Assembly (NCBI GenBank): GCA_043810695.1
Contig: JBDRNV010000018.1
Span: forward strand, 1-48,464
Length of the DNA: 48,464 nt
DNA from: Nanobdellota archaeon
GTDB taxonomy: Archaea; Nanobdellota; Nanobdellia; Pacearchaeales; GW2011-AR1
Direction: 5' to 3'
Each line of letters begins with the position of its first letter. Positions within the stretch are counted from its first letter, which is position 1. This document shows positions 34,261-48,281 of this stretch, piece after piece. The position numbers and the translations under genes were made by a program. The notes under the pieces were generated by a model. The model worked only from the letters and a program-made list of their open reading frames with translations, was not told the DNA's origin and ran no database searches.

Positions 34261-35115
34261 TCACTTAGCTTTCTTCTTATGAACAGAAAGATATCGTCTC
34301 AGAAAATAAGAAACAAAACTGTCTTCGTCTTTTTCTAATGCCTTATAATATGACTTTCTTTTTTTATATTCTATGATAAGCATAGGATATTTATTATGCC
34401 ATAATATAGAATTCATTAAAAGTCTCCCAACTCTTCCATTACCGTCTCCAAAAGGATGTATTTTTTCAAATTGATAATGTGCCCTTCCTGATAGTTCCAC
34501 GGAGTTCATTTTTTTATTTTTTTCAATGAATTCTATAAATCTTTTCGTTAGATTCTCAATGTCCTGCCAATCTGGAGCTAAATGTGGACCAACTCTGACA
34601 AGATAATCTCTAAACATCCCCGCAATATCCGGCTTTGTTTCACCAAATATATCTTTATGCCATTTTAATAATAACTCTTTAGTAATTTTTTCATTCTTTT
34701 TTAACATCTTTAAAAATACTTTATTGTGGGATTCTGTTTCTTTAACATCTCTTAAGGGTTTATTTGGAGAAATTTTATCATGAATAATTTCCCTTGTTTC
34801 TTCTAAGGTGATTGTGGAGCCCTCTATGGCATTTGTGTTATAAGTGAAGGCAATGGATATCTCTTCAAGTTCTTTTTCCTTCACACTTTCTGGAATTCTT
34901 TTCCACTCGATTTGAAAATTTTCCTTTATTCTTTCAAACTTGTTATAGAGGTCTGTTTTTAACTCCCTGTTAAATTCTTCTTTTATTTTACTAATATCTT
35001 TAGGTATTAAAGAGCCCAAATATTTTTCTTTTTTTACTACTTTATTGCCTTTTCTTATGCTATGTTCTAAGTAATAGTATTCTTTCTTGCCCTTAGTTTT
35101 TTTTCTTATAATCAT
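34261..35115 (-). CDS. Fic family protein (AMPylase/adenylyltransferase-like)
   Basis: 284 aa with the canonical Fic motif HPFGDGNGRVGRLL. Confidence 0.88.
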   Translation of the reverse strand: MIIRKKTKGKKEYYYLEHSIRKGNKVVKKEKYLGSLIPKDISKIKEEFNRELKTDLYNKFERIKENFQIEWKRIPESVKEKELEEISIAFTYNTNAIEGSTITLEETREIIHDKISPNKPLRDVKETESHNKVFLKMLKKNEKITKELLLKWHKDIFGETKPDIAGMFRDYLVRVGPHLAPDWQDIENLTKRFIEFIEKNKKMNSVELSGRAHYQFEKIHPFGDGNGRVGRLLMNSILWHNKYPMLIIEYKKRKSYYKALEKDEDSFVSYFLRRYLSVHKKKAK

Positions 35116-35135
35116 AGAATAATATACCCCTACAC

Positions 35136-35144
35136 ATTTATATA
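35136..35144 (-). promoter_or_regulatory. TATA box (TATATAAAT on the minus strand) about 25 nt upstream of the Fic start
   Basis: Lies inside the module, between 7-bp inverted repeats CCCTACA (35128-35134) and TGTAGGG (35166-35172). Confidence 0.45.
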
Positions 35145-35174
35145 CTTTTCTGTTTCTGATTAATATGTAGGGAC

Positions 35175-35186
35175 ACGCCCCGACCG
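35175..35186 (+). repeat. Core repeat copy 2 (ACGCCCCGACCG)
   Basis: Exact 12-mer. Together with the next 31 nt it forms a 43-bp repeat (35175-35217) that recurs at 36370-36412 with one mismatch. Confidence 0.9.
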
Positions 35187-35187
35187 A

Positions 35188-35217
35188 AACCAGTATAAAA
35201 GTTTACGGGTTAGGGTT
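35188..35217 (+). repeat. 30-bp arm AACCAGTATAAAAGTTTACGGGTTAGGGTT, copy 1
   Basis: Identical to 36383-36412. Both copies lie immediately right of a core copy. Confidence 0.9.
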
Positions 35218-35237
35218 TATGAGGGATGTTAGTTAGA

Positions 35238-35570
35238 TTAATCTTTTAAAAAAGAAATTATTTTGTTCAAGATCCCGTTAAATTTTTCTGACTTTAAAGA
35301 ACCAATTTTATATTTGATTAACGATTTTTCTATAGAGAAGATTTTATCTAATCTAAGATAGCTATCAACTTTTAATCCACCTCTAATAAAGTCTTTTTTA
35401 ATAACTGGAATTTCAACAGAAGATTCATATGATTTACCGGTTATTTGGTTAACTATAATATCATCGCCTTTTGGAATCTTAATAATTAAAACAGGTCTTC
35501 GTTTAACTTGCACTAAATTTGAGAAAGGGAAATCTATAACAATTACATCACCTTTCACAAGTCTTTCCAT
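35238..35570 (-). CDS. mazF: PemK/MazF-family toxin (endoribonuclease)
   Basis: 110 aa. GDVIVIDFPFSNLVQVKRRPVLIIK is the MazF/PemK N-terminal signature. Overlaps the upstream antitoxin ORF by 16 nt. Confidence 0.8.
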   Translation of the reverse strand: MERLVKGDVIVIDFPFSNLVQVKRRPVLIIKIPKGDDIIVNQITGKSYESSVEIPVIKKDFIRGGLKVDSYLRLDKIFSIEKSLIKYKIGSLKSEKFNGILNKIISFLKD

Positions 35571-35773
35571 ATCTCATCTTCCTCTTTATTCAACCATGTC
35601 TTTGCCAAAGATTTCTCTGACATTAAAGCCGTTTCTGGAATAGACTTCTTCAGAATTATTTCGTCATCTTTTCTGATTACGATTAGCTTATCTCCTTCAT
35701 TAATTCCTTTACGCAAATCTAAGGGAATTACTATTTGTCCCCTTGAACTCATCTTGGTTGTATCAATTATCAT
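35555..35773 (-). CDS. mazE: AbrB/SpoVT-type (MazE-like) antitoxin
   Basis: 72 aa. SSRGQIVIPLDLRKGINEGDKLIV is a swapped-hairpin AbrB motif. Confidence 0.75.
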   Translation of the reverse strand: MIIDTTKMSSRGQIVIPLDLRKGINEGDKLIVIRKDDEIILKKSIPETALMSEKSLAKTWLNKEEDEIWKDL

Positions 35774-35790
35774 AAATAAGATTAATCTTA

Positions 35791-35802
35791 CTTATATTTA
35801 AA
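35791..35802 (-). promoter_or_regulatory. TATA box (TTTAAATATAAG on the minus strand) about 24 nt upstream of the mazE start
   Basis: Position and composition only. Confidence 0.4.
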
Positions 35803-35823
35803 TGTTTGTTTTTTAGTTAAGAC

Positions 35824-35835
35824 ACGCCTCGACCG
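35824..35835 (+). repeat. Core repeat copy 3 (ACGCCTCGACCG, one C-to-T difference)
   Basis: Followed by arm GACAGGGCGTAGG (35842-35854), which is 12/13 identical to the arm after copy 1. Confidence 0.85.
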
Positions 35836-35844
35836 AACTACGAC

Positions 35845-35855
35845 AGGGCGTAGGA
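35845..35855 (+). repeat. Left 11-bp inverted repeat of the 150-aa-ORF module (AGGGCGTAGGA)
   Basis: Perfect reverse complement of 36355-36365 (TCCTACGCCCT). Confidence 0.85.
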
Positions 35856-35858
35856 GAA

Positions 35859-36311
35859 TTATCTTCTTGAGGTAAGATCGTGCGCAAACATTATAGAATC
35901 ATTTGGCCTTTCATAAGCTGTCCCATGACTCGATTTTCTTTCCATGGCTTCACTACCTGATACCACTGGAAGAAAAGTCAGAGAAAAAGCGACTTCTTGA
36001 CTTCCCAATGGTCCAACCTCATGAAATGGTTTATGATAATAGGATTCTAAGCCATATTCTCTTAACATATTTTTAACAGCATCATTTTCCATAGGAGATT
36101 TTAAGGTAACTGTAAAGTATCTAGCAGAGGCATATTTACCTTGCCCCCGATCCTCTAAATCAGCATCCCATTTAAAATTTAAAACCCTAGAATCTTCTTT
36201 TAGTTTAAATAGAGAAGTTAAACAACTAACATCGGCTTCCTTATAACTAGTCATTGCAACTACATGCTCAAGAGCAGCTATTCTGAATCTTTGATGATCT
36301 TCATTAAACAT
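35859..36311 (-). CDS. Hypothetical protein (cassette-borne, no family recognised)
   Basis: 150-aa ORF that fills the module. Visibly more G+C-rich than its neighbours (about 40% by eye). Confidence 0.55.
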   Translation of the reverse strand: MFNEDHQRFRIAALEHVVAMTSYKEADVSCLTSLFKLKEDSRVLNFKWDADLEDRGQGKYASARYFTVTLKSPMENDAVKNMLREYGLESYYHKPFHEVGPLGSQEVAFSLTFLPVVSGSEAMERKSSHGTAYERPNDSIMFAHDLTSRR

Positions 36312-36354
36312 GATTTTAGATTAAATTACTCCTTTAAAAAACTTGTGAAAGATA

Positions 36355-36365
36355 TCCTACGCCCT
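36355..36365 (-). repeat. Right 11-bp inverted repeat of the 150-aa-ORF module
   Basis: TCCTACGCCCT is the reverse complement of 35845-35855. It lies 5 nt before core copy 4. Confidence 0.85.
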
Positions 36366-36369
36366 AGGC

Positions 36370-36381
36370 ACGCCCCGACCG
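36370..36381 (+). repeat. Core repeat copy 4 (ACGCCCCGACCG)
   Basis: Exact 12-mer, followed by the 30-bp arm shared with copy 2. Confidence 0.9.
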
Positions 36382-36382
36382 T

Positions 36383-36412
36383 AACCAGTATAAAAGTTTA
36401 CGGGTTAGGGTT
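36383..36412 (+). repeat. 30-bp arm AACCAGTATAAAAGTTTACGGGTTAGGGTT, copy 2
   Basis: Identical to 35188-35217. Its last 2 nt overlap the methyltransferase stop codon. Confidence 0.9.
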
Positions 36413-37124
36413 ATTTTTTTAATGTCAGAAAAGTCTTATTATATCCGCTATTGTAATATTCAATAAACTTGAATTTTTTACATTTCTTAACAAAATCGTA
36501 AAAAGCTTTCTGTTCTCCTTTATTTGGATTTCCTTTAAAGGCATTCCAATCATCAAAGTGGATAATTGTCCCCTCTTGTAAGTAAGGTTCTATGAACTCA
36601 AATACTTCTTTTGCAGACTCATATAAATCACAATCTATATAAGCAACAGCTAACTTTTTGATTTTGTGTTTTTTCTTTAAGGTTTCAGAATAAAACCCTT
36701 TCACAGCAAAAACTTTATTTAAATCAATCCCATTTCCTTTAAGATTTTTCATAAAATCTTCTAAAGAACAAGAATATTCTCCCCTTTTCCATATTGCTTC
36801 TTTATCTATTCCTTTTATTTCTGGTAAGCCTTCAAAACTATCAAAAGCCCAGAAGTTCATATTTTTTATTCCAAAAAACTCTGCAAATTTGTAAGCAGCA
36901 ATAAAAGAATGTCCTTCATAAACACCAAATTCAGCATAATCTCCATCTATTTTTCCAAGATGAACAAATCCCATAATTCTCCTAAGAATTTCTTCAGAAG
37001 AGCTATAAAGGACGAGATTTCTAAGCCAGTAGATGGGTTTAGACCAACGGAATCTTACAAACGCTTTTTTTAATAATTCTTTCATTCCACGAATTAATGG
37101 AATGTTTCTTTTAAATCTTACCAC
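36411..37124 (-). CDS. Class I SAM-dependent methyltransferase, TylF/macrocin-O-methyltransferase-like
   Basis: 237 aa from GTG 37124; ATG at 37085 (M14) is an alternative start. DGDYAEFGVYEGHSF, AFDSFEGLP, YIDCDLYES and IIHFDDW match the TylF-family motifs. Confidence 0.7.
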   Translation of the reverse strand: MVRFKRNIPLIRGMKELLKKAFVRFRWSKPIYWLRNLVLYSSSEEILRRIMGFVHLGKIDGDYAEFGVYEGHSFIAAYKFAEFFGIKNMNFWAFDSFEGLPEIKGIDKEAIWKRGEYSCSLEDFMKNLKGNGIDLNKVFAVKGFYSETLKKKHKIKKLAVAYIDCDLYESAKEVFEFIEPYLQEGTIIHFDDWNAFKGNPNKGEQKAFYDFVKKCKKFKFIEYYNSGYNKTFLTLKK

Positions 37125-37135
37125 ATATTTATGGA

Positions 37136-37357
37136 ATGAAAAGAAGAGACAGCTTATCTATAAAAAAGAGAATTTTACAAGTCTTAAAAGAAAATGGTGA
37201 AATGTCTTTAGGAGAATTAGAAAGAAAAACAAACACCAATAATTTAACTATCTTATCTCATATTAAAGAGTTAGAGTTTTTTGATAGAATAGAAATAATA
37301 AAACATAAGAAAAGTGATAAAACCGGCAGACCATATACAAGTATTAAGTTAAAATAA
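37136..37357 (+). CDS. Small winged-helix (ArsR-like) DNA-binding protein
   Basis: 73 aa. KRILQVLKENGEMSLGELERKTNTNNLTILSHIKELEFFDRIE. Divergent from the methyltransferase with almost no spacer. Confidence 0.6.
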   Translation: MKRRDSLSIKKRILQVLKENGEMSLGELERKTNTNNLTILSHIKELEFFDRIEIIKHKKSDKTGRPYTSIKLK

Positions 37358-37402
37358 ATTTACTATCTTTCTTTGTTTTCTTAAACCGTATATTAAATAT
37401 CA

Positions 37403-37414
37403 ACGCCCCGACCG
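37403..37414 (+). repeat. Core repeat copy 5 (ACGCCCCGACCG)
   Basis: Exact 12-mer, 5 nt left of the 21-bp terminal inverted repeat of the integrase/R-M unit. Confidence 0.9.
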
Positions 37415-37419
37415 GACGA

Positions 37420-37440
37420 TTAGTATTACGACAACACTCT
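37420..37440 (+). repeat. Left 21-bp terminal inverted repeat
   Basis: Perfect reverse complement of 48285-48305. Confidence 0.92.
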
Positions 37441-37444
37441 GAGT

Positions 37445-37466
37445 TCGTCATTTAAATATTTGACGA
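37445..37466 (+). promoter_or_regulatory. Integrase promoter: TATA-like TTTAAATATT (37451-37460) bracketed by 6-bp inverted repeat TCGTCA/TGACGA
   Basis: The TATA centre is about 25 nt upstream of ATG 37480. The inverted repeat flanks it symmetrically and may be an operator. Confidence 0.45.
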
Positions 37467-37479
37467 GCTAAGGAGTAAT

Positions 37480-38673
37480 ATGAACAAGACACAAGACATA
37501 CATAACTACAAAAGAATTTTAGACAGACTCATCGAGAGAATAACTTTTGAAGAAAACTTTTCTAAAGCTAATAAGAATACTGCATTAAAGTTTAAGGATG
37601 AACTCTTGTCACAGAATATAGGCCTTGCTAAGACTGGACGATATTTGCAAGATATAATTTGGCTTAATAGAAATTTTGATGGAATGGATTTTGAAGAGGC
37701 AACAAAAGCAGATATTAAAAAATTAGTGGCCAAAATGAATGTCTCAGAATTAGCAGAATCTACAAAGAAGGGAATTAAGGTTATGCTTAGAAAACTTTAC
37801 AAATTTCTTCGAGGAGTTGATGGAAAAGGAAAATACCCTCCAGAAGTCAATTGGTATACACTAACAATCTCAAATAGTAACAAGAAAATTCCAGAAGAAT
37901 TGTTGACTGAAAATGAAATGGCGGATATAATAAAGTTTTGTAAGAATGATAGAGATAGAGCTTTAATGTCCTTGATGTGTGAGTCTGGTTGTAGAATAGG
38001 AGAGGCTGGTTCAATGCAAATAAAACATGTTTTATTTGAAGAATATGGGGCAAGGATTACATTAAAGGGAAAAACTGGAATGAGAAAAATATTAGTTGTT
38101 AAATCTGCACCACACCTTCGAAACTGGATAAATCTTCATTCCAATTTAGAGAATAGGGAATCTCCTCTTTGGCCAGGCCCTTCAGGAGAATGTCTTAGCT
38201 ATGCTAGGATAGTTAATATTCTCAAAGAGAGTTCAATCAAAGCAAGGATTAGAAAACGAGTCCATCCACATCTTCTAAGGCACAGCAGAGCAACTTTGAT
38301 GGCGAAAACAGCAACAGAAGCTACTATGAAACATTATTTAGGATGGACCCAAGGAAGTAACATGGCTGCAATATACATTCATTTTAGTGGAAAAGATACT
38401 GATGATGCAATTCTTCAACAGAACGGAATAATAATTAAAAAAAGTGAGACTGATTCACCAATGAAACCTAAGAAATGCTTCAGGTGCCATAGTCTCAATG
38501 GCTTTTCAGATAATTTTTGCAAGATTTGCTCTATGCCTTTAAATGAAGGAACTGCAACAAAGGTTATTGAAGAAGACTCTAAAAGACAGAAGGCAGATAA
38601 TTTAATGAATCAATTATTTAATGACCCTGAAATTCTTAACCTTATTCAGATGAAGATTTCTTCAAAAACCTAA
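37480..38673 (+). CDS. Tyrosine recombinase/integrase with C-terminal zinc ribbon
   Basis: 397 aa. Candidate catalytic residues sit in ESGCRIGEA (Arg), HPHLLRHSRAT (His-x-x-Arg), HYLGW and AAIYIH (Tyr). The C-terminal CFRCHS...CKICS is a zinc ribbon. Confidence 0.82.
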   Translation: MNKTQDIHNYKRILDRLIERITFEENFSKANKNTALKFKDELLSQNIGLAKTGRYLQDIIWLNRNFDGMDFEEATKADIKKLVAKMNVSELAESTKKGIKVMLRKLYKFLRGVDGKGKYPPEVNWYTLTISNSNKKIPEELLTENEMADIIKFCKNDRDRALMSLMCESGCRIGEAGSMQIKHVLFEEYGARITLKGKTGMRKILVVKSAPHLRNWINLHSNLENRESPLWPGPSGECLSYARIVNILKESSIKARIRKRVHPHLLRHSRATLMAKTATEATMKHYLGWTQGSNMAAIYIHFSGKDTDDAILQQNGIIIKKSETDSPMKPKKCFRCHSLNGFSDNFCKICSMPLNEGTATKVIEEDSKRQKADNLMNQLFNDPEILNLIQMKISSKT

Positions 38674-39139
38674 TTTTCCTCTTTATTTCTCCCCTTAAAT
38701 ATGTGATTTCCTCATTAAGAATTATCTTTTGATATTCTAATGATTTAAGTTTAGCTCTTAATTTTTTTATTGGAATTTTCTTCTTCCCTGTTGCTTCTTC
38801 CTCTGTTCTTCGGTATCTATTAAATTTTGCTAATGCCTGTTTGTATGCCTTACTTCCCTTGTTAGGATATTTCTTACAAATTTTTAGATATTCTATCTGA
38901 TTTTTTTGTTCATTTCCAGAAATAATCTCTAGAGAATCTTTTGCTCTAACATAATCTCCAAATAAGTTTTCAGATATTCTTTTGTTTATTAGTGTTATCG
39001 AGAAGTATCCATTTGGGACTTGTTCAACCACATCTTTATTCTTCCAATTCATATGATTAATTAATTTCTTGTTTAATGGATAGAGAACTCGGTCAGACTT
39101 AATAGTAATTCGTCTTGTTCTTGGGCGTCTTGTTCCCAT
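38642..39139 (-). CDS. Hypothetical basic protein
   Basis: 165-aa ORF convergent with the integrase (32-nt overlap). No family recognised. Confidence 0.45.
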   Translation of the reverse strand: MGTRRPRTRRITIKSDRVLYPLNKKLINHMNWKNKDVVEQVPNGYFSITLINKRISENLFGDYVRAKDSLEIISGNEQKNQIEYLKICKKYPNKGSKAYKQALAKFNRYRRTEEEATGKKKIPIKKLRAKLKSLEYQKIILNEEITYLRGEIKRKIRFLKKSSSE

Positions 39140-39164
39140 ATACGAACTTGGAAAGGGTTATTTA

Positions 39165-39180
39165 AAAACGTATACGTTTT
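39165..39180. promoter_or_regulatory. Perfect 16-bp palindrome AAAACGTATACGTTTT in a divergent intergenic region
   Basis: Lies between the divergent ORFs 38642..39139 (-) and 39301..39567 (+). Confidence 0.4.
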
Positions 39181-39300
39181 GTAGATAAAATTATAGATAC
39201 AATTCTTACTTTTGTTTGTTATGGAATGGGTAGAAAAGTTACTCGAATTAAAAAAAGAAAATGAAAAGGAGCCCTCAAAAGAGGACTCCGAACAAGACAC

Positions 39301-39567
39301 ATGGGAAAAGAATTAGAAATACTTAAAGGACGACCGGGTCTTTACTCAAGGTTCTTAGAGAGATTATTTTTTGCTTGGCATAAGATACCAATATCTTCAA
39401 GAAAAGATTATCTTCCATATCCAGAATTTAGATTAGCAATTTCTCGCAGCTTCCAAATTACTAAACAGGAAGCAATGGAAATTTTGAGAATATTTGTAGA
39501 CTTAGAATATGTAACACTTCAAAAAAGAGGAGTTAAATTAAATTTTAAGGTCATCGAAAATGAATGA
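39301..39567 (+). CDS. Small hypothetical protein, possible winged helix
   Basis: 88 aa. ITKQEAMEILRIFVDLEYVTLQKRG is wHTH-like. Overlaps the next ORF by 8 nt. Confidence 0.45.
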   Translation: MGKELEILKGRPGLYSRFLERLFFAWHKIPISSRKDYLPYPEFRLAISRSFQITKQEAMEILRIFVDLEYVTLQKRGVKLNFKVIENE

Positions 39568-40333
39568 AAAGATTCGTAAAATTTTTCGTAATCCTAAGTC
39601 TATAGCTTATCGGGCCTTTTTTTATATTGGAACTCATCAAGACGAACATTTATTGTATATTTCAATACTATCAAGACATACTAAAATAAAATATACCTCT
39701 CTCCACTATTGGATTACTAAATTTAAACAGGAGGGATTAATCAATAAACAACTAGAATTTACTTCTAGAGGGAATAAACTATTCAAATTTTTATGGGAAA
39801 TGAAGGATGTTAAATTGTTAAGAGCCCATAACATTCAAATAATTTTTTATTTATCCTCTTGTCCAGTAGAATTTGTTAAAAGGTATTCAGATAAAGTTTT
39901 TACTGTATTTACGAATAAGAAGTTTATGGGATTGAATGGAGAAGTAAAAACACCTTATGGAATTATTTCTATTATGTTTTATAGCCGAAAGAAAATTGTT
40001 TGTGTTTTAAAAGATATTTTTGGAGAAACTGACGAAGATATTTCTTCTGCTATTGCTTCTCAAGTTCCAGATGTTATTCAATTACTAGAATCTACATTTA
40101 AGGGCATTAAAGTGGAATCACATAAACCTGCAAGGATACAAACATCCCATATAGCTGTTATTAATTCTAATTTTGCAAAGAGATTTGATTTGAACAGTAT
40201 AACTTATGAAGGGAAGAATATTGCAATGGACCGTTCTCAAGGGAATGAAGAATTGGAGCTTACAAATCCACGAAATAATTTATTAGGAATTGAATTTCTT
40301 AAAAAACTGGAAGAGGGATTAGACGACCTATAA
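39560..40333 (+). CDS. Hypothetical protein with N-terminal wHTH (possible plasmid or viral replication or regulatory protein)
   Basis: 257 aa. LYISILSRHTKIKYTSLHYWITKFKQEGLINKQ is wHTH-like. The C-terminal region is unrecognised. Confidence 0.45.
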   Translation: MNEKIRKIFRNPKSIAYRAFFYIGTHQDEHLLYISILSRHTKIKYTSLHYWITKFKQEGLINKQLEFTSRGNKLFKFLWEMKDVKLLRAHNIQIIFYLSSCPVEFVKRYSDKVFTVFTNKKFMGLNGEVKTPYGIISIMFYSRKKIVCVLKDIFGETDEDISSAIASQVPDVIQLLESTFKGIKVESHKPARIQTSHIAVINSNFAKRFDLNSITYEGKNIAMDRSQGNEELELTNPRNNLLGIEFLKKLEEGLDDL

Positions 40334-40336
40334 ATA

Positions 40337-40765
40337 ATGAATAAAGTTCTTATTGATGATATGGTAAGTGAATTACAAATTAATGCAAATAAAGAAAATT
40401 CTGAAAAATCTACTGGTCCAACAGATACTTCAAAAACCAGATTTAATGCAGTAAAACATGGGATTTTTTCTAAGAAATTTGTTGAAAAATCAGACATGAA
40501 TGAATATGAGATGATTCTAGATGAAATAGTAATAGAATTTTTGCCCAAATCAATAATTGAGTTTAGAATCCTAGAAAAAATGGCAATTTCATTATGGGAA
40601 TCTCAAAAGATATTGGATACCGAACAAAAATCTAATTATACAATTAGATTTGGCGACACTTATAATCTTATTGAGACATTGCAGAGATATAAGATTGAGG
40701 CTGATAATAAATTTTATAAGGCAATTAAGATGTTGAATGCTGTCAGAAATGATTATAAATTATAA
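40337..40765 (+). CDS. Hypothetical protein
   Basis: 142-aa ORF starting 3 nt after the preceding stop. Confidence 0.45.
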   Translation: MNKVLIDDMVSELQINANKENSEKSTGPTDTSKTRFNAVKHGIFSKKFVEKSDMNEYEMILDEIVIEFLPKSIIEFRILEKMAISLWESQKILDTEQKSNYTIRFGDTYNLIETLQRYKIEADNKFYKAIKMLNAVRNDYKL

Positions 40766-40839: not shown

Positions 40840-43587
40840 ATGGCTCAAAATGATAATCTTAGTGAAGCGGAGACAAGGCAACAAAAGATTGACAAGGATT
40901 TAGAAAAAGTTGGCTGGAGAAAAGAGTATATAAAAGAGGAGATTAATTCTGTTAAATCTGATTTTAGAACAAAAGAATATGCTCCATTCAATGGAAATGT
41001 GGAGAAGGGAGTGGATAGGTTTATTGACTATTTATTACTTGATGAACAAAAGAAACCCTTAGCCTTAATTGAGGCAAAGAAGACTTCTGTAAGTGTTGAG
41101 AAGGGTATGATACAGTCAAAATCTTACCAATTAGATATAGAGAAACAGATTGGAAGGAAGATTCCAATCTTCTTAACCAATGGTAAAACTTGGTATTTTA
41201 TTGATTCTGAAGATATTAAAAGAAAAGTTTTATTGCCGTTAAGTCAAAAGGACCTCACAAGAAGACAAAGTTTAGATACAAGGAAGAGAGCACCTTCAAA
41301 AGTCAAAATTAATTCAAATATTGTTGATAGGGATAGAAGTGTTTTGGCAGTTAAACAAGTCTTAGAGCACTTTGAAAAAGGACATAGAAAAGCTCTTGTA
41401 AATATGGCTACAGGAACTGGGAAGACAAGAGTTGCTATGGCAATTATTGATGGGCTTATTCAATCAGGACATGTTCAAAAAGTTTTATTTGTAGTTGATA
41501 GAATATCTCTTGCTAATCAAGCTAAAGAAAATGGATTTAAAGCATTTTTTAAGGAACCTGTTTGTGAGCTCAATTCTGAAGGATTTTCAGATTCTCAGAG
41601 ACTTTATGTTTCCACAGTTCAAACTTTAATGAGTGAAATAAAACCTCGAGGAAAATTTTATGAGAAGTTTGGAGTCGGAGCATTTGACTTAATAGTATTT
41701 GATGAGGCTCATCGTTCTTATTATGATAGAAATAATGATATTATGGAATATTTTGATGCACTTGTTATGGGCTTGACAGCAACACCATCTACTAAAGAAG
41801 AGAGAAATACTTACAAATTATTTAATTGTGAACTTGGGAAACCAACAGTAGAATATAGTTATGATGAAGCAGTAGAAGAAAAAGTTCTTGTTCCTTACGT
41901 TGCAGAGGTTATTGGAACAAAAGTTTTAACTTTAGGAATTGAAGGTGCAAAATTGAATAAAAAATTAAAGCAATCCCTTGCAGAGCAAGAAGAAAATCCT
42001 GAAGAATTAGAACTTCCCGGTTCAAGATTTGAAAAGTATTTTACTGATAGAAGAACAAATGAATTAATTCTAAAAGAATTTATGGACAGATGTTATAAAA
42101 CTCCTAATGGAACCCCATGTAAAACGTTGTTTTTTTGTGCAAGTGTGAAACATGCAGAATCATTAAAAAGATTATTTGATGAACTATACCCTTTATTAGC
42201 AAAAACAGCGAGGGTAATTACTTCTGATAGAACTAGATATATGGATGAAGTAAGGAGATTTAAAAAAGATTCTGACCCTCGGATAGTATTCTCTGTTGGA
42301 GTTCTTGATACTGGGATAGATATTCCAGAACTTTGCAATCTAGTATTTGTAAAACCAGTATTCTCTTACATTAGATTTTGGCAAATGCTTGGAAGAGGAA
42401 CTAGAAACTTTGAAACATGTAAAAATAAGTCTTGGTTATCCCATAAAGGAGATATTCCTGTAAAAGAAGATTTCTTGATATTAGATTTTATGTTTGGAAA
42501 TCATTCTAATGTAAAGGAGCATGACCTTGATAGAACAAAGGCAAGAGCGGTTACTATTAGTGCAAAAACAAAAATTTTCTTAGAACAAGTTGAATTATTA
42601 GAAAAAGGGCTCAAAGGAAAAGAAAAGGAAATCATAACTAAAGAGATTCTTGAAACTGTAAAAAATATAGATGATGAATCTCCAATGGTATTAGAGAAGA
42701 AGAATATTATTAAAAAAATTGTTTCTGCAAAATTTGATTTAGAAAAACATATTAAAGAATTAAAAGAAGAAATAGCACCTCTTCTAATATATTCTAAATC
42801 AGAAAATTCAAAAGTTTATAGTTTTGTTTTAAAATGTGTAAGGCTTTTTGATTCAATTAAAAAGAAGGATGGTGAAGCCATAGGGAAAATTCAAGACTAT
42901 GCTAAAGAACGATTAGAAAATATTTGGGGTAGTGGGCTAGAGGTTGTAAGGGAAAAGGATAAAGAAATTAAGTTAATTCTCGGAGATGACTTTTGGAGTG
43001 ATTTAACATTCGAAGATGTAGACTTCCTCATAAGAGATATTTCTCCTTTGATGATTTATTATGAAACTGACAGGAAGAAAATATTGAGAATTGATGCACC
43101 TGACACAATAATTAGTAAAGAAGAAATTAAAAAAGAAAAAAAAGAGAATCCAGATTTTGTAGAATTTCTAAATAAGAATCCTTTATTGAAAAAAATAAAA
43201 GATGGGGATGGGGTAACTTCTAAAGAACTATTAAAAATAGAAAAAAAGTTATCTGAACTTAACCCTGCATACACTATTGAAAATATCCAAAGGAGCCAAG
43301 ATTTTGTTTTATTTTTAAGGGAATTAATTGAAATTAAAGATTTACCAGACCCTCAACAAATGATTAAATGGGAATTTGATAAACACGTTGCTGATAAGAA
43401 TGAACATTATAATTCTGACCAGTTAAAATTCTTAAAGTTTCTTAGTAGAATATTTATAAGTTCAAAGCACATTGAATTGAAGAGTTTTGCAGAGCACCCT
43501 CTTACAGAAGAGAGGCCACTTGATTTATTTACTCCTAAACAGCTTAAGATTATTACTGAAAAATGTAACGAGTTAAGATGGAAATAA
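40840..43587 (+). CDS. hsdR: Type I restriction enzyme, R subunit (HsdR), with EcoEI-R-like C-terminal domain
   Basis: 915 aa. N-terminal AETRQQKIDKDLEKVGW and PD-(D/E)xK-like FIDYLLLD...ALIEAKK. Helicase motif I MATGTGKTRVA, motif II VFDEAHRS and motif III GLTATP. Confidence 0.88.
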   Translation: MAQNDNLSEAETRQQKIDKDLEKVGWRKEYIKEEINSVKSDFRTKEYAPFNGNVEKGVDRFIDYLLLDEQKKPLALIEAKKTSVSVEKGMIQSKSYQLDIEKQIGRKIPIFLTNGKTWYFIDSEDIKRKVLLPLSQKDLTRRQSLDTRKRAPSKVKINSNIVDRDRSVLAVKQVLEHFEKGHRKALVNMATGTGKTRVAMAIIDGLIQSGHVQKVLFVVDRISLANQAKENGFKAFFKEPVCELNSEGFSDSQRLYVSTVQTLMSEIKPRGKFYEKFGVGAFDLIVFDEAHRSYYDRNNDIMEYFDALVMGLTATPSTKEERNTYKLFNCELGKPTVEYSYDEAVEEKVLVPYVAEVIGTKVLTLGIEGAKLNKKLKQSLAEQEENPEELELPGSRFEKYFTDRRTNELILKEFMDRCYKTPNGTPCKTLFFCASVKHAESLKRLFDELYPLLAKTARVITSDRTRYMDEVRRFKKDSDPRIVFSVGVLDTGIDIPELCNLVFVKPVFSYIRFWQMLGRGTRNFETCKNKSWLSHKGDIPVKEDFLILDFMFGNHSNVKEHDLDRTKARAVTISAKTKIFLEQVELLEKGLKGKEKEIITKEILETVKNIDDESPMVLEKKNIIKKIVSAKFDLEKHIKELKEEIAPLLIYSKSENSKVYSFVLKCVRLFDSIKKKDGEAIGKIQDYAKERLENIWGSGLEVVREKDKEIKLILGDDFWSDLTFEDVDFLIRDISPLMIYYETDRKKILRIDAPDTIISKEEIKKEKKENPDFVEFLNKNPLLKKIKDGDGVTSKELLKIEKKLSELNPAYTIENIQRSQDFVLFLRELIEIKDLPDPQQMIKWEFDKHVADKNEHYNSDQLKFLKFLSRIFISSKHIELKSFAEHPLTEERPLDLFTPKQLKIITEKCNELRWK

Positions 43588-43647
43588 GTCTACAATTGTA
43601 GACTTGATTATAGTAAGATTTAAAAAGGATAAATATTCTAACCTTTT

Positions 43648-44040
43648 ATGCAAGACGAAATTAAACAACCAAAAGACTATGTTTCTATGTCTACAAGACT
43701 TCCCTCTGTCGATGCTGTTAAATTAAAATTTCACTGTAAAAGAAATGGGGTTTCGCCTTCAGAGTTTATTCGAGACATTGTTCATGAAAAGATGAATGAA
43801 TCACCAATCTCTCATCTTGCAGGCTCCAATAAAATTGAATATGACCTTCAAAAGGATAGTTTTGTTTGGAAGGTTGTGGGAGATGATGGTCAAAACTATG
43901 AAATAATGAAAAATATTGGCATTGAGCTTTTAGAGGATTTATCAAGAGAGATTAAATTTCAAATAAATAAGAGAAGGGATTTGATTGGAAAGAAATCAAA
44001 AGAGTCTGTAACAATACCACGGAGGTTAGTAAAAAAGTGA
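43648..44040 (+). CDS. Ribbon-helix-helix (CopG-like) protein with unknown C-terminal domain
   Basis: 130 aa. YVSMSTRLPSVDAVKLKFHCKRNGVSPSEFIRDIVHEKM has strand-helix-helix spacing. Its stop overlaps the next start (GTGA at 44037-44040). Confidence 0.55.
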   Translation: MQDEIKQPKDYVSMSTRLPSVDAVKLKFHCKRNGVSPSEFIRDIVHEKMNESPISHLAGSNKIEYDLQKDSFVWKVVGDDGQNYEIMKNIGIELLEDLSREIKFQINKRRDLIGKKSKESVTIPRRLVKK

Positions 44041-44324
44041 GTTTAGAATCAAATTTATTATTTCTTGTAATCTTTGGAATATCAGGGTATGTTGTCAACA
44101 AAATTTTTGATTTCAATCCTGCAGAATACTGGGTAAAGTTTGGAACAATAAGTATTATTGCCTCTTTAACAATTGCCTATCTTCCTACAGTTTTTAATCC
44201 GGAAGATGTCGTAAATAACGTTCTTAGGATTACAACATGGTTTACTAATATTTTGCCAGGAGTAATAATTGGGGACATTGCAGGTCAAATCGTTTCTTCA
44301 TTTACAGGAGGAAATAAGAAATGA
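44037..44324 (+). CDS. Small membrane protein (2-3 TM helices)
   Basis: 95 aa from a GTG start. Hydrophobic segments LLFLVIFGISGYVV, ISIIASLTIAYLPTVF and ILPGVIIGDIAGQIV. ATGA overlap with the next ORF. Confidence 0.5.
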   Translation: MSLESNLLFLVIFGISGYVVNKIFDFNPAEYWVKFGTISIIASLTIAYLPTVFNPEDVVNNVLRITTWFTNILPGVIIGDIAGQIVSSFTGGNKK

Positions 44325-45208
44325 ATCAATTCGAAGAGTTCGAGTTTTTAGACAGTTCTGGAAATAAAACCAAACATAATTGTGATAAATCAAAATTAGC
44401 AAATTTACATGGTGCTAATCCAAATGCACCTCAATTCTTAACTCCTGTATTTTTTGATAAAGAAGTTCTAGATAGATATTACAACAAGCCTTCAGAATAT
44501 TCTATCCAAGATGGGGCATTATTCTTCGGAATAAAATGGATGGTGAGATTAGATAATAATTCTAGAGATTGTATAACTGTCTATCTTGGGGATTTAGGAG
44601 ACTTGCCACATAAAGAACAATTACATTGGAAATTCCATAACATTACTCAAGGGTCACTTAGTAATGTATCTCTTAAAAGAGATTTTATGGCAGAATTTAC
44701 TCCGGCCCAAGAACCCTCATTAGTTTTTAAACAAAAACTTAATAATTTTAATAAAAAATGGAATGAAAAGTTTGAATGGGATTTGTTCAAACCCTTAAAT
44801 AATGAAGATGAACATCACCTAAAATCATTAAAAATTCCAAAGAATGAACAAAAAGAATTTGATGAGATTATTTTGTCTCTTAACAAAATTATTATAGATT
44901 CTTTAAACGTTGCCGAAATGAAGAAACACTTAGATTCTAAAGAAGAAGAGAAATCAATTTCAGTCCTTGAGAGATATTTAAAACAGAAATATCGACTTAG
45001 CAATATTGAGATGTTTAATTTTCTAAGAAGTTTACAAATTTTAAGGTCTAGAGGAAGTGCTCATAGAAAAGGAAGCGATTATCATGAAATTTATAAAAAA
45101 TTTGATGAGGGTGATTTTTCAAAAACTTTTGAGAAAATATTAATTAAATCTATCTGGATATTGAATACGTTGGAGAATAAAATATTGGAGAGTGGAAATG
45201 GTAAGTAA
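44321..45208 (+). CDS. Unknown protein with C-terminal Rx5H (HEPN-like) motif
   Basis: 295 aa. The helical C-terminal region contains LRSLQILRSRGSAHRKG (R242-H248, nt 45044-45064). Overlaps the hsdS start by 11-17 nt. Confidence 0.5.
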   Translation: MNQFEEFEFLDSSGNKTKHNCDKSKLANLHGANPNAPQFLTPVFFDKEVLDRYYNKPSEYSIQDGALFFGIKWMVRLDNNSRDCITVYLGDLGDLPHKEQLHWKFHNITQGSLSNVSLKRDFMAEFTPAQEPSLVFKQKLNNFNKKWNEKFEWDLFKPLNNEDEHHLKSLKIPKNEQKEFDEIILSLNKIIIDSLNVAEMKKHLDSKEEEKSISVLERYLKQKYRLSNIEMFNFLRSLQILRSRGSAHRKGSDYHEIYKKFDEGDFSKTFEKILIKSIWILNTLENKILESGNGK

Positions 45209-46370
45209 GTGGAAGGATTTTAAAATTGAGGATTTAGGAGAGATTATTACTGGAAATACTCCTTCAAAATCTGAGCCTGAAAATTACGGCGACAAAACTC
45301 CCTGGGTCAAACCACCTAATTTAGATATTGAAAAGTATCTTTTTGAGACTGAAGATTATCTCTCGGAAATTGGAACAAAAAAAGCAAGAATATTGCCTAA
45401 AGGAACAGTTCTTGTTTCGTGCATTGGAAATATTGGTAAAATAGCTATAGCAGGTAGGAAAATGTGCACTAATCAACAAATCAATAGCATAGTTCCAAAT
45501 AATAATATTAGTGGTGAGTTTTTGTATTATGCAATAAAAAAGTTTCAAAAAAGATTAGAAGATAAAGCAACAAAAGCAGTAGTTCAGTTACTAAATAAAA
45601 CAGAGTTTTCTAAAGTAGAGATTCCAATTCCAATTCTCTCAGATGGAACTCCAGACCGAAAAAAACAAGAAGAAATTGTTTCAATTCTTGAAAAGGCAGA
45701 AGCATTAAAGAATAAAAGAAAAGAAGCTGAAGAAATCCTTGATGAATATTTAAAGGCGGTTTTTTATAATATGTTTTTGAAGCATAAGGAGAAGTTTGAG
45801 GAAGTTGAGTTAAGCGAAATTTCTGAATTGATAACAAAAGGAACAACACCTACAACATATGGGTACAAATATCAAGAATCAGGAATCCCTTTTTTAAAAG
45901 TAGAAAACATTACTTCTGGGGAAATAAATTTTTCTGTGAATTCCAGATATATTGATGAAGAAACGCATGAGTTTCTTAAGCGGTCTCAGCTAAGAAGAGG
46001 AGATGTTTTATTCTCAATTGCAGGAGCAATTGGAAGGTCTGCAGTGGTAAATACAGACAAAAAGATGAATCTTAACCAAGCAATTGCTATTATTAGGCCA
46101 AAAAAAATTATCAATTCAAGATTTTTATCTACTGTTCTAAATACTTCATTTATTAAAAATCAAATACAAAACGTAATTGTCAAAGTCGCGCAGGCAAATT
46201 TAAGTTTGACAGAAGTGAGAAAAATTAAAATACCTTTACCTCCAAAAGAACTCCAAGAAAAATTTCTATCAATAATAAATTATGCTAAGCAATTTCAAAT
46301 TGAAGAAGAGACGGAAGACATATTTAATTCATTATCACAAAAAACATTTACAGGAGAATTAGTAAAATGA
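45192..46370 (+). CDS. hsdS: Type I R-M specificity subunit (HsdS), two target-recognition domains
   Basis: 392 aa from GTG 45192 or ATG 45198. Two TRDs with LGEIITGNTPS / ISELITKGTTPT openings, and conserved helical spacers (EEIVSILEKAEALKNKRKEAEEILDEYLKAVF and LQEKFLSIINYAKQF). Confidence 0.85.
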   Translation: MEMVSKWKDFKIEDLGEIITGNTPSKSEPENYGDKTPWVKPPNLDIEKYLFETEDYLSEIGTKKARILPKGTVLVSCIGNIGKIAIAGRKMCTNQQINSIVPNNNISGEFLYYAIKKFQKRLEDKATKAVVQLLNKTEFSKVEIPIPILSDGTPDRKKQEEIVSILEKAEALKNKRKEAEEILDEYLKAVFYNMFLKHKEKFEEVELSEISELITKGTTPTTYGYKYQESGIPFLKVENITSGEINFSVNSRYIDEETHEFLKRSQLRRGDVLFSIAGAIGRSAVVNTDKKMNLNQAIAIIRPKKIINSRFLSTVLNTSFIKNQIQNVIVKVAQANLSLTEVRKIKIPLPPKELQEKFLSIINYAKQFQIEEETEDIFNSLSQKTFTGELVK

Positions 46371-46750
46371 ATAAAGAATACAAACATGATTGTGATAAAA
46401 TGCATATTGTGGAGGGAAAATTAGTAAAATCAAAAGATGATTATCAAAATTTAATAGATTTTGTAAAGAGATGGGAATTAAAATGCAAGGATATTCAAAA
46501 GCAAGCTTATGACAATCAACAATGTTATGATATATCTATGATGTTTATAGACGAATGGGCCTATAAGTTCTTTTATCAAGATAAGGTAAAAAATAAATTA
46601 ACTTTAATAAATCAACTATCTAATGACTTTAGAATAGCTGTAATAAAAGCCAATAATAATTATAAAAAAGAGAATAGGACTTTTTGGAACCTATTTTTTA
46701 AAGATAAATTAAAACTACCTGATTTACATCTACATACAAAAAGAATATGA
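46367..46750 (+). CDS. Hypothetical protein inserted between hsdS and hsdM
   Basis: 127 aa. ATGA overlap with the hsdS stop. No family recognised. Confidence 0.45.
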   Translation: MNKEYKHDCDKMHIVEGKLVKSKDDYQNLIDFVKRWELKCKDIQKQAYDNQQCYDISMMFIDEWAYKFFYQDKVKNKLTLINQLSNDFRIAVIKANNNYKKENRTFWNLFFKDKLKLPDLHLHTKRI

Positions 46751-46787: not shown

Positions 46788-48281
46788 ATGTTACACCCAG
46801 AATTAAAATCAAAAATTAGGAAATTATGGGATAAGTTTTGGAGTGGAGGAATTAGTAACCCTCTTCAAGCAATTGAACAAATATCTTATTTAATTTATAT
46901 GAAAAGGTTAGAGGATAAGGAAGTTCAAAGAGAGCAAGAAGCAATTCTTAAAGGAATAAAATATAAATCTATCTTTGAGGGACATGAAGATTGTAGATGG
47001 AGCGAGTGGAGTGAATATCCTGCAGAAAAAATTCTTGACCATGTAAGATATAAAGTATTCAAGTTTATGCAAGGTCTTGGAGATGATGGTGGATTATATG
47101 CCAAGTATATGGCAAGTGCCAATTTTGAAATTCCAACGGCATCATTAATTATTGAAGCAGTAAGCATAATTAATGATTTACATATTAAAGAACAAAATCA
47201 GGATGCTCAAGGAGATATTTATGAATATCTTTTATCTGAATTACAAACTGCAGGGAAGAATGGGCAATTTAGAACTCCAAGACATATTATTCAAATGATG
47301 GTTGAGCTTACAAAACCTGAACTTAATGATAGGATACTTGACCCTACATGCGGGACTGCAGGATTTTTAGTTAATGCCTATGAGTATATCCTAAAAGAAA
47401 ATACCTCTAAGTCTTTAATTAAGATTGATGATGAAGGAAATCAATATAATTTCAAGGCAGATAAATTAAAACCGCAACAAAAGAGATTTTTAGATGAAGA
47501 AACAATTTATGGTAATGATATAGACCCTGTTCTTACAAGAATTGCTTTAATGAATTTAATGATGCATGGAATAACAAAACCAAATTTAAAACAGCTTAAT
47601 ACACTCTCAAAAAGATACAATGAGGAGAATACCTATAATCTTATCCTAGCTAACCCTCCCTTCAAAGGTTCAATTGATGAATCTGAAATGAGTGATAATT
47701 TTAGGATTAAAACTAAGAAAACAGAATTATTATTCTTAGAATTAATGTATAACTCTCTTGCAAATGGAGGGAGATGTGCAGTAATAATTCCTGATGGAGT
47801 TTTATTTGGCGGCTCTAATGCACATAAGGCAATAAGAAAATTAATCTTAGAGAGATGTAGACTTGATGCAGTAATCTCCATGCCCTCAGGAGTATTCAAG
47901 CCTTATGCAGGAGTTTCAACAGCAGTTTTATTTTTTACAAAAGGAGAATCTACAAAGAATGTTTGGTTTTACGAAATGGAGGCAGATGGGTTCACTTTGG
48001 ATGATAAAAGAACTAAAATTAAACAAAATGATATTCCAGAGATTCTTGAGAGATTTGAAAAAAGAAAAAAAGAGGATAATGAAGATAGAAGCAAGAAACA
48101 TTTCTTTATTCCAATTGAAGAGATTATTAAGAAGGATTATAGTCTTAGCTTATCAGCTTATCAAAAGAAAATATACAAGCAAGAAGTGTATGAAGAGCCA
48201 TCATACTATCTTGACCGATTTGAAAAGAAGATAGGAGAAATTGCTAAGAACACTAAAGAGCTAAAGAAGCTCATGAAATAA
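46788..48281 (+). CDS. hsdM: Type I R-M N6-adenine DNA methyltransferase subunit (HsdM)
   Basis: 497 aa. HsdM N-domain (LWDKFWSGGISNPLQAIEQISYLIYMKRL), motif I DPTCGTAGFL and motif IV NPPF (LANPPFKGS). Confidence 0.9.
   Translation: MLHPELKSKIRKLWDKFWSGGISNPLQAIEQISYLIYMKRLEDKEVQREQEAILKGIKYKSIFEGHEDCRWSEWSEYPAEKILDHVRYKVFKFMQGLGDDGGLYAKYMASANFEIPTASLIIEAVSIINDLHIKEQNQDAQGDIYEYLLSELQTAGKNGQFRTPRHIIQMMVELTKPELNDRILDPTCGTAGFLVNAYEYILKENTSKSLIKIDDEGNQYNFKADKLKPQQKRFLDEETIYGNDIDPVLTRIALMNLMMHGITKPNLKQLNTLSKRYNEENTYNLILANPPFKGSIDESEMSDNFRIKTKKTELLFLELMYNSLANGGRCAVIIPDGVLFGGSNAHKAIRKLILERCRLDAVISMPSGVFKPYAGVSTAVLFFTKGESTKNVWFYEMEADGFTLDDKRTKIKQNDIPEILERFEKRKKEDNEDRSKKHFFIPIEEIIKKDYSLSLSAYQKKIYKQEVYEEPSYYLDRFEKKIGEIAKNTKELKKLMK

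Follow-up and report, generated by a model that had tools for sequence, protein, structure and literature searches.

Unnamed genes in two internal gaps of an archaeal type I restriction-modification operon, one of them carrying a candidate HEPN-type RNase motif

The latent RNase PrrC, whose HEPN domain is C-terminal, is encoded between the hsd genes of the type IC restriction-modification (R-M) system EcoPrrI; it is held by EcoPrrI, is released by Stp of phage T4 and serves as a back-up when a phage blocks restriction (PMC3710099, PMC12707154). In the Ronin system of Escherichia coli, the 61-amino-acid (aa) membrane effector RonA is proposed to be kept in check by HsdMS until anti-restriction proteins set it free (bioRxiv 10.1101/2023.04.06.535777). 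HEPN families described from R-M operons further include DUF4145, Abi2/AbiD/AbiF, ApeA, EC042_2821 and pEK499_p136 (Anantharaman et al. 2013). R-M-embedded HEPN genes are thus an established theme, and the kind of gene considered here is already known. We examined a stretch of 48,464 nucleotides (nt) from a Nanobdellota archaeon (assembly GCA_043810695.1, contig JBDRNV010000018.1; hereafter the window), in which a type I R-M operon contains four embedded open reading frames (ORFs), designated orfA to orfD (Table 1). What is new is the large unnamed protein family to which orfC belongs, the fixation of its truncated form in type I operons of DPANN archaea, a membrane protein that is shared among effector types, and a conserved arrangement of ribbon-helix-helix (RHH) gene, palindrome and TATA box. 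Related loci are labelled L### and orfC-family proteins P####.

The locus was compared with each of these systems. Like PrrC and RloC, orfC is embedded among hsdR, hsdS and hsdM, both in the window and in all of the loci that carry the same short form of the gene, and its product has a two-domain layout with an Rx(4-6)H motif in the C-terminal domain. In contrast to PrrC and RloC, no ABC/Rad50/SbcC-like NTPase domain was detected in orfC with Pfam, PADLOC or NCBIfam; orfC has no detectable sequence similarity to them, its N-terminal alpha/beta fold is unmatched, and its host R-M system is archaeal and type IB-like. With no ABC ATPase detected, orfC falls outside the PrrC/RloC family. With the R-M-embedded HEPN families it shares the genomic theme and the class of motif, occurring either stand-alone or embedded in R-M operons, in bacteria and in archaea, whereas the L-R-S-x-G-x-A-H-R-K-G motif and the N-terminal domains are specific to the orfC family. 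The likeness to Ronin lies in orfB, whose product is likewise a small membrane protein encoded in an operon of this kind. However, Ronin is without hsdR, which is present here, and orfC lies between orfB and hsdS. Compared by features rather than by sequence, RonA has a single transmembrane (TM) span, whereas orfB has 95 aa, two to three spans and an effector gene after it.

That the host operon contains a complete type I R-M system is beyond doubt. Its hsd genes were identified with Pfam, PADLOC and NCBIfam, and a single operon contains an HsdR with a nuclease and a superfamily 2 (SF2) motor, an HsdS with two target-recognition domains and an HsdM of the N6-adenine methyltransferase type. HsdR matched ResIII (9e-37), SWI2_SNF2, Helicase_C, HSDR_N and EcoEI_R_C in Pfam and REase_I (5e-83) in PADLOC, and is nearest to the EcoAI/FtnUII family of NCBIfam (6e-69, under the curated cut-off). 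HsdS matched Methylase_S of Pfam in two stretches (1e-45) and Specificity_I of PADLOC (3e-70), and HsdM matched N6_Mtase (6e-66) and HsdM_N of Pfam and MTase_I of PADLOC (5e-170). Identities to the genes of related loci were 47-68% for hsdR (51-66% for full-length matches by tblastn) and 64-84% for hsdM (64-76% for full-length matches). The nearest relatives of all the operon genes are in metagenome-assembled genomes of Nanoarchaeota, Woesearchaeota and Pacearchaeota.

An earlier analysis of the letters alone (the original prediction) had proposed the gene order, four start/stop overlaps and the codons of an RSRGSAH motif in orfC, and all of these coordinates were borne out by an ORF map and a base-by-base reading. 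The overlaps are GTGA at 44037-44040 (orfA/orfB), ATGA at 44321-44324 (orfB/orfC) and ATGA at 46367-46370 (hsdS/orfD); the orfC stop codon, TAA at 45206-45208, produces an overlap with hsdS of 17 nt if hsdS starts at GTG 45192, or of 11 nt if it starts at ATG 45198. The latter is the likely start: it has a GGAG 11 nt upstream, and the 11-nt overlap recurs in L012. Four-base overlaps are frequent in this compact genome and are unremarkable taken alone. GGAG or GGAGG motifs were found 11-18 nt upstream of orfB, orfC, hsdS (ATG 45198), orfD and hsdM, and no such Shine-Dalgarno (SD) motif was found ahead of hsdR or orfA. The four embedded genes, none of whose products had been recognised originally as a named family, gave nothing above threshold in the Pfam, NCBIfam and PADLOC scans. 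They are nevertheless real genes rather than chance ORFs, since homologues of each hold the same kind of position elsewhere; the possibility that they are spurious was rejected on this ground.

The largest of the four, orfC, has 91 unnamed relatives among 5.8 billion proteins searched. From 1.84 billion cluster representatives, a profile recovered 2,411 clusters (50% identity) at E<0.001 and 978 at E<1e-30, and the family is present in at least 171 species-level genomes, including those of Streptomyces, cyanobacteria, candidate phyla radiation (CPR) bacteria, Bathyarchaeia and DPANN archaea. Its members are labelled 'hypothetical protein' in the source records, and orfC and the 40 relatives scanned (31 relatives; 10 long forms) gave no usable match in Pfam, NCBIfam or PADLOC. 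The median length in the family is 544 aa and the dominant form has ~545 aa. The window orfC is therefore a short form, without the 250-aa N-terminal extension of the long forms. In long forms P0093-P0239, this extension (residues ~1-250) contains the conserved motifs W..P..Y.R..EP..R.F..E..EEFR..L..G; it gave no match in Pfam or PADLOC. We rejected the idea that orfA, orfB and orfD are split-off pieces of the extension, as no similarity was found, and the extension is also unrelated to any other embedded gene. A distinct subgroup of 450 aa (P0055-P0078) has another N-terminus. The family is nearly absent from viral contigs, with 2 matches in 2.9 million, and the proposal of a virus-borne gene was therefore rejected in favour of a host-side gene.

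The motif R242-S-R-G-S-A-H248 of orfC has the form Rx5H and belongs to the family consensus L-R-S-x-[GS]-x-[AG]-H-R-K-G-x-x-[YF]. Across 248 aligned diverse family sequences, which are representatives of clusters at <=50% identity, conservation is 98% for R242, 91% for S243, 99% for H248, 89% for R249 and 96% for K250. The family thus has the conserved Rx4-6H motif of the HEPN superfamily, with a polar residue following the arginine (S, 91%). The original prediction had named, among the findings that would count against it, an R and an H not conserved among homologues, and on this point it has not been refuted.

The AlphaFold2 model of orfC, from an 81-sequence alignment, has a predicted local distance difference test (pLDDT) score of 92.2 and a predicted template-modelling (pTM) score of 0.87. 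A beta-rich or alpha/beta N-terminal domain (residues ~1-110/125) is followed by a helical C-terminal domain (~125-290), which was also modelled separately (residues 125-295, pLDDT 87.7). In both models, R242 to H248 close helix 229-247, the third helix of the confidently modelled helical domain, and are followed by a loop, a short helix and a long last helix, 266-289. According to one passage of a published description, HEPN domains carry Rx4-6H at the C-terminal helix end, before a loop (PMC3710099). As regards the order of helix and loop, the motif position in the orfC models fits that passage, the Rx5H ending helix 229-247 and a loop coming after it.

Searches of the PDB with Foldseek placed HEPN proteins at the head of the list for residues 125-295. 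The top match was the HEPN toxin 7ae6_B (probability 0.91, TM-score 0.44/0.51), followed by 2hsb, 6m6u_H, 8xdj_C, 7bxo_F, 8xeh and 5yep_C; every match with a probability above 0.4 was a HEPN protein, with TetR, Mcl-1 and PA28 at ~0.1. The full model gave weak helical matches, of which HEPN toxins alone had an appreciable probability and none had E<0.1; in the same search the N-terminal domain had no structural counterpart, and the full model gave nothing against BFVD. The best matches of the C-terminal domain are thus HepT/MntA-type toxins (7ae6, 6m6u, 5yep, 8xdj), which it resembles in having the Rx4-6H-type motif (Rx4H in the toxins) near the domain end. However, the match is not significant (E>=0.17, TM-score ~0.45-0.5), orfC is without an MNT nucleotidyltransferase partner, and it has ~40 extra residues of helical inserts as well as the added N-terminal domain. 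With the motif and the genomic context also taken into account, the C-terminal domain of orfC is probably a divergent HEPN domain, which as an RNase would use R242 and H248.

The genomic context of orfC is most uniform for the short form. In 13 of 13 distinct loci (the window, L001, L004, L007, L011, L012, L013, L015, L016 and L106-L109), short-form orfC lies between hsdR and hsdS of an orthologous operon, and here the full-length tblastn matches to the window genes were 51-66% identical for hsdR and 66-76% for hsdM. For the long forms, genes were called in 73 loci and 132 immediate neighbours were scanned. The commonest neighbour families were HSDR_N (6), T1RH-like_C (5), SWI2_SNF2 (5), Methylase_S (4), Eco57I (4), Mrr_cat (3) and MmeI_Mtase (3); these R-M families were followed by AbiEii-type AAA_21 and integrases, and the remaining neighbours were heterogeneous. 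An association of homologues with R-M, whose absence would have counted against the original prediction, was found for both forms. Approximately 20% (one in five) of the long-form loci adjoin an R-M gene, which would be far above chance as judged by the general density of R-M genes. In L024, L049 and L088, the long form is flanked by the hsdS and hsdR genes of another type I family; therefore, the orfC family has become embedded in R-M operons more than once. In L009, a member of the 450-aa subgroup has Mrr on one side and a type III-like Mod/Res pair on the other. We also noted that L012 (CAYHWX010000133.1), a 9-kb contig whose orthologous operon has relatives of both orfA and orfC, is binned as 'uncultured Vicingus sp.', a bacterium, which reflects either misbinning or inter-domain transfer.

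The position between hsdR and hsdS is not reserved for orfC. Where orfC is missing, the slot holds two ThsB-TIR proteins (1e-18), an OLD-like TOPRIM protein (2e-5), a PIN protein or a weak Abi_C match, and in other related loci a KAP NTPase and an OLD nuclease stand alongside orfC. Taking the R-to-S and S-to-M slots of this operon lineage together, KAP NTPase, OLD nuclease, SLFN_AlbA_2/HATPase_c_4, DUF2283, TIR and PIN genes are found there as well. Most orfC loci are without orfA, orfB or orfD. The four genes are thus independent occupants of two slots and not one four-gene module. The earlier view of unknown genes embedded as cargo in a type I R-M operon is upheld, whereas its further step, a single module chained to hsdS, is contradicted by the independent assortment of these genes in related DPANN operons. 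By analogy with PrrC and Ronin, such turnover of the slots is the pattern that would be expected of second-line defence cargo.

The second gene, orfB, behaves differently from orfC in that the gene is constant and its neighbour changes. Genes 62-73% identical to orfB are present in ten other loci. Those in L013 and L015 (62-65%) share its MSLE... beginning, which supports the GTG start. Two hydrophobic spans are clear (residues ~1-25 and ~35-53; Kyte-Doolittle 19-residue mean >=1.6) and a third is weaker, so that of the two to three TM spans predicted originally, two stand out. In seven of eight distinct loci, orfB overlaps the downstream gene by 4 bp, and this gene varies. It is orfC in the window, L013 and L015/L096; elsewhere the place is taken by two ThsB-type TIR proteins (L092; 1e-18 and 8e-8), an OLD-like TOPRIM protein (L095; 2e-5), a 207-aa F5-like protein, with a PIN protein directly upstream of orfB (L093), a membrane protein and a 628-aa uncharacterised protein (L094), or a 431-aa uncharacterised protein and then a PF05168 HEPN protein (L097; 4e-10). 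The last of these loci does not belong to a type I operon; the island around it contains PLD, Toprim, DNA methylase and MNT genes. These neighbourhoods suggest that orfB may be a generic membrane partner or co-effector of whichever effector fills the slot.

The product of orfA combines an RHH-like N-terminus (~residues 14-51) with a 75-aa C-terminal extension. Its sub-threshold matches are all to RHH families (RHH_1, E=0.09; DUF6290, E=0.064; aCcr1, E=0.097), and in the PDB Mnt (E=0.57) and Arc (E=1.1), likewise below threshold, aligned to residues 18-57. The RHH assignment made originally is thus favoured by every match, none of which reaches significance. Relatives of orfA were found only in L012 (32% identity, 1e-14) and L094 (26%), in the same slot, and the word-indexed search of 5.8 billion proteins gave no homologue. 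Most sister operons carry at this position an RHH-like family of 59-68 aa, F3, with the sequence GEERKIVSTRLYKSEF..FKK.C..EGK..N.KLRE and the same strand-helix-helix pattern; a PDB sequence-profile search with the 59-aa family gave nothing significant. Homology between orfA and F3 was rejected (a hidden Markov model scored orfA at E=0.086 and the L012 relative at 4e-4), and the two, at most distantly related, were regarded as analogues by position. Whether the cargo is orfC, TIR or TOPRIM, the RHH gene stays in place, and other genes often lie between it and orfC.

The DNA ahead of orfA has features of its own. The palindrome AAGTCTACAATTGTAGACTT is a candidate operator for orfA, or alternatively a terminator hairpin for hsdR, and a third half-site, GTCTACAA, lies within orfA. 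Downstream of the palindrome, TTTAAAAA is a candidate archaeal TATA box, and the lack of an SD motif upstream of orfA fits a leaderless transcript. At the equivalent place in L011, L013, L015 and L092, TTTAAATA or TTTATATA is found. Wherever the RHH gene directly follows hsdR, the spacer consists of a palindrome and then TTTAAATA, TTTATATA or TTTAAAAA, with ~25 nt from there to the start codon. The palindrome changes along with the RHH gene type, being AAGTCTACAATTGTAGACTT in the window, AAAAAGGTGTATACACCTTTTT or close variants of it where the RHH gene is F3, and others in L094 and L095. In L013 (571-592) and L015 (7493-7514), a different palindrome with a GGTGTATACACC core occupies the same place, with a TATA-like box after it. 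Read from the sequence, this arrangement suggests that the genes from orfA to hsdM have a second promoter, under RHH control. A scan for bacterial promoters and terminators stayed at background level, with models that are not applicable to an archaeon.

The constant RHH position, and the palindrome and TATA-like box ahead of it, make it more likely that orfA is a regulator of the operon than an antitoxin; the dedicated antitoxin that the original prediction had considered fits less well with an RHH gene whose position is independent of the cargo. In being a small predicted DNA-binding protein of an R-M operon, behind a palindrome and its own candidate promoter, orfA resembles the C proteins and the RHH autoregulators (Arc/Mnt/CopG). 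In contrast, classical C proteins are helix-turn-helix proteins of type II systems, whereas orfA is RHH-like at a sub-threshold level and has the extra C-terminal part.

The fourth gene, orfD, occupies the gap between hsdS and hsdM. It has nine homologues at 46-75% identity, and no match in Pfam or the PDB; PADLOC gave one weak match, to JetB (E=0.0033, 15 bits). L099 and L100 have the same hsdS-orfD-hsdM slot, with a weak Abi_C protein at the place of orfC. In L101 (4141-9005) and L102, the order is N6_N4_Mtase, a 206-aa uncharacterised gene, the orfD relative and ResIII, an arrangement that is type III-like; in L103, the orfD relative is beside an NYN-domain gene and upstream of ResIII, with no Mod visible on the short contig. 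The orfD family therefore accompanies R-M systems of more than one type, and orfD appears to be a separate small R-M accessory, unrelated to the other embedded genes. In L004 (13364-14800), L016 (11780-13207) and L106 (10324-11751), a gene of 475-478 aa with SLFN_AlbA_2, HATPase_c_4 and HTH_24 domains is directly upstream of hsdM, in the hsdS-hsdM position held by orfD in the window.

Taken together, these data can be read as follows. The type IB-like hsdR-hsdS-hsdM operon of this DPANN-type archaeon would have two internal gaps that serve as exchangeable slots for second-line defence. The RHH repressor encoded by orfA would bind the palindrome that precedes its own TATA box, and the genes from orfA to hsdM would be under its control. 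Translated in step with HsdS by means of the 11-nt overlap, orfC would be held inactive by the HsdM/HsdS (or HsdM/HsdS/HsdR) complex, by analogy with PrrC in EcoPrrI, with its N-terminal alpha/beta domain probably sensing or binding something. When a virus disables restriction, or some other signal of infection appears, orfC would be released or activated and would cut cellular and viral RNA, producing a growth stop in the form of abortive infection or dormancy; orfB would act as a membrane-damaging co-effector like RonA, or as an anchor. We give about an even chance to this reading, in which orfC encodes a latent RNase of the HEPN type that is coupled to the R-M complex, orfB supplies a generic membrane partner or co-effector, the RHH regulator of the operon is orfA, and orfD is an unrelated accessory. 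A wider proposal is possible but stands on the doubtful side: that the orfC family constitutes both a new HEPN RNase clade and a new immune gene of the stand-alone kind, with the truncated DPANN form as a resident guard of type I R-M, equipped with an RHH-controlled promoter and a shared membrane protein (with TIR, OLD-TOPRIM, PIN and HEPN partners), in a modular 'R-M guard slot' of a kind so far undescribed for archaea.

Several observations weigh against the coupled-RNase reading. The best Foldseek match of the orfC models in the PDB had E=0.17, with TM-scores of 0.44-0.52 and a root-mean-square deviation of 7-11 Å, so that no structural match is significant. No Pfam HEPN model matched orfC or its 40 relatives at E<=1, bar one: a single relative of 31 matched HEPN_AbiU2 at E=0.019. 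PDB profile searches with the full family and with the C-terminal domain were empty, and hhalign gave a probability below 1% between a 245-sequence profile of the C-terminal domain and two classical HEPN proteins from related loci. The N-terminal domain is strongly conserved (F45, Y53, W73, D78, N79, L89-L92, N107, S114), at least as strongly as the C-terminal domain, and with the invariant polar residues D78, N79, D91, N107 and S114 it could be the real active part. Approximately 80% of the long-form loci are not beside recognisable R-M genes, and a strict role as an R-M guard therefore cannot hold across the family. The counts of slot contents are biased, since homology to orfC, orfB or orfD was the route by which loci were collected. 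Contact of orfC with HsdM or HsdS, its toxicity and its RNase action are predictions. The HEPN call thus rests on the motif, its topological position, the ranking of the structural matches and the context, with no significant match behind it. What supports the original HEPN proposal is a near-invariant Rx5H at a helix end, with HEPN proteins as the top structural matches; a match by Pfam, by hhalign or at significant E-value did not follow. We consider a divergent HEPN domain in the C-terminus of orfC likely.

Three other explanations were weighed against the coupled-RNase reading. Were orfC a non-toxin accessory or regulatory subunit of the type I system, acting in restriction modulation, assembly, localisation or alleviation with the R and H used for binding, its presence between hsdR and hsdS in every one of the 13 short-form loci and its overlap with hsdS or the next gene would be readily understood, as would the very strong conservation of its N-terminal domain and the lack of significant similarity to HEPN proteins; moreover, a passage of the published description cited above states that some HEPN-like domains are non-catalytic (PMC3710099). 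However, most family members are long forms that stand alone, away from type I systems, and orthologous operons work without orfC, carrying TIR, TOPRIM or Abi_C genes instead. Conservation of the R and H at 98-99% across bacteria and archaea is also typical of catalytic residues, and we regard an accessory subunit as unlikely. The effector might alternatively be orfB, killing through membrane damage as in Ronin, with orfC and the other slot genes as the sensors that release it. The two hydrophobic spans of orfB, the constancy with which it precedes variable genes (overlapping them by 4 bp in 7 of 8 loci) and the precedent of RonA, a small membrane effector of programmed cell death from an hsdS-hsdM locus, point in this direction. 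Against it, orfB is missing from most orfC loci (10 of the 13 short-form and all of the long-form loci), and TIR, OLD, PIN and HEPN domains are normally effectors themselves, which leaves this explanation distinctly improbable.

It is also conceivable that the embedded genes are selfish cargo of the toxin-antitoxin (TA) type, hitch-hiking in a mobile R-M operon and functionally unconnected with restriction; orfA would then be the RHH antitoxin, and orfC, orfB or both the toxin. An RHH gene does lie upstream of the putative toxins, the operon follows an integrase and has Fic and PemK/MazF genes nearby, the slot contents turn over rapidly, and the closest structures to the C-terminal domain of orfC are HEPN toxins of TA pairs. 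Nevertheless, the RHH gene stands at the same position before orfC, TIR and TOPRIM and is often separated from orfC, no RHH family is among the top 25 neighbour families of the long forms, and orfC is coupled to hsdS and not to orfA. In a type II TA pair, RHH antitoxin and HEPN toxin would be adjacent and co-inherited, whereas here orfB lies between orfA and orfC. Addiction cargo thus seems a rather poor account of the locus, and the coupled-RNase reading is retained.

The rest of the window is archaeal chromosome of ~30% G+C that carries a threonyl-tRNA synthetase with the archaea-specific editing domain, an archaeal-type phenylalanyl-tRNA synthetase and a phosphoenolpyruvate synthase. Upstream of the operon are a Fic/DOC gene, a PemK/MazF toxin gene, a TylF-like methyltransferase gene, a tyrosine integrase gene and four uncharacterised ORFs, and an integrated element or defence island that includes the R-M operon may extend to the window end. 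Just upstream of these defence genes is a gene for a large secreted-type protein. A small ORF in another frame within hsdM, Lys/Arg-rich and of low complexity, has almost certainly arisen by chance in AT-rich DNA.

Table 1. Coordinates of the R-M operon, its embedded genes and neighbouring features in the window
Feature	Position	Strand	Description
Secreted-type protein gene	30153-34196		1,347 aa; S8 subtilase, I9 inhibitor propeptide, NosD/beta-helix repeats, PKD
Fic/DOC gene	34261-35115	-	Upstream of operon
Four uncharacterised ORFs	within 34261-40765		Upstream of operon
PemK/MazF toxin gene	35238-35570	-	Upstream of operon
TylF-like methyltransferase gene	36411-37124	-	Upstream of operon
Tyrosine integrase gene	37480-38673		C-terminal Cys-rich tail; upstream of operon
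hsdR	40840-43587	+	Type I restriction subunit, EcoAI/EcoEI-like, type IB-like
Palindrome AAGTCTACAATTGTAGACTT	43586-43605		Perfect, 20 nt (10+10 nt, 100% complementary); directly after hsdR stop
TTTAAAAA	43619-43626	+	Candidate archaeal TATA box, ~25 nt ahead of orfA ATG
orfA	43648-44040	+	130 aa; RHH-like N-terminus, probable DNA-binding regulator
Half-site GTCTACAA	43689-43696		Within orfA
orfB	44037-44324	+	95 aa; GTG start; small membrane protein
orfC	44321-45208	+	295 aa; short form of large unnamed family
RSRGSAH codons	45044-45064	+	AGG TCT AGA GGA AGT GCT CAT; R242 to H248, Rx5H, candidate HEPN catalytic motif
hsdS	45192 (GTG) or 45198 (ATG) to 46370	+	Specificity subunit, two target-recognition domains
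orfD	46367-46750	+	127 aa; small soluble protein, small family within R-M operons
hsdM	46788-48281	+	Methyltransferase subunit
Small ORF within hsdM	47905-48234		109 aa; other frame

Immunity in archaea, and especially in DPANN archaea, is poorly mapped; a recent census finds no defence other than CRISPR and R-M in approximately a third of archaeal genomes (PMC12988326). If the coupled-RNase reading is true, a large unnamed family would gain a function as an HEPN-type immune RNase, and the type I R-M operons of small-genome archaea would carry exchangeable back-up defences at fixed slots, with a small membrane protein as the shared partner of several effector types. The locus supplies residues that can be tested, R242 and H248, together with a candidate operator. 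The principle of a guard of restriction, known from PrrC and Ronin, would then extend from E. coli to the archaea.

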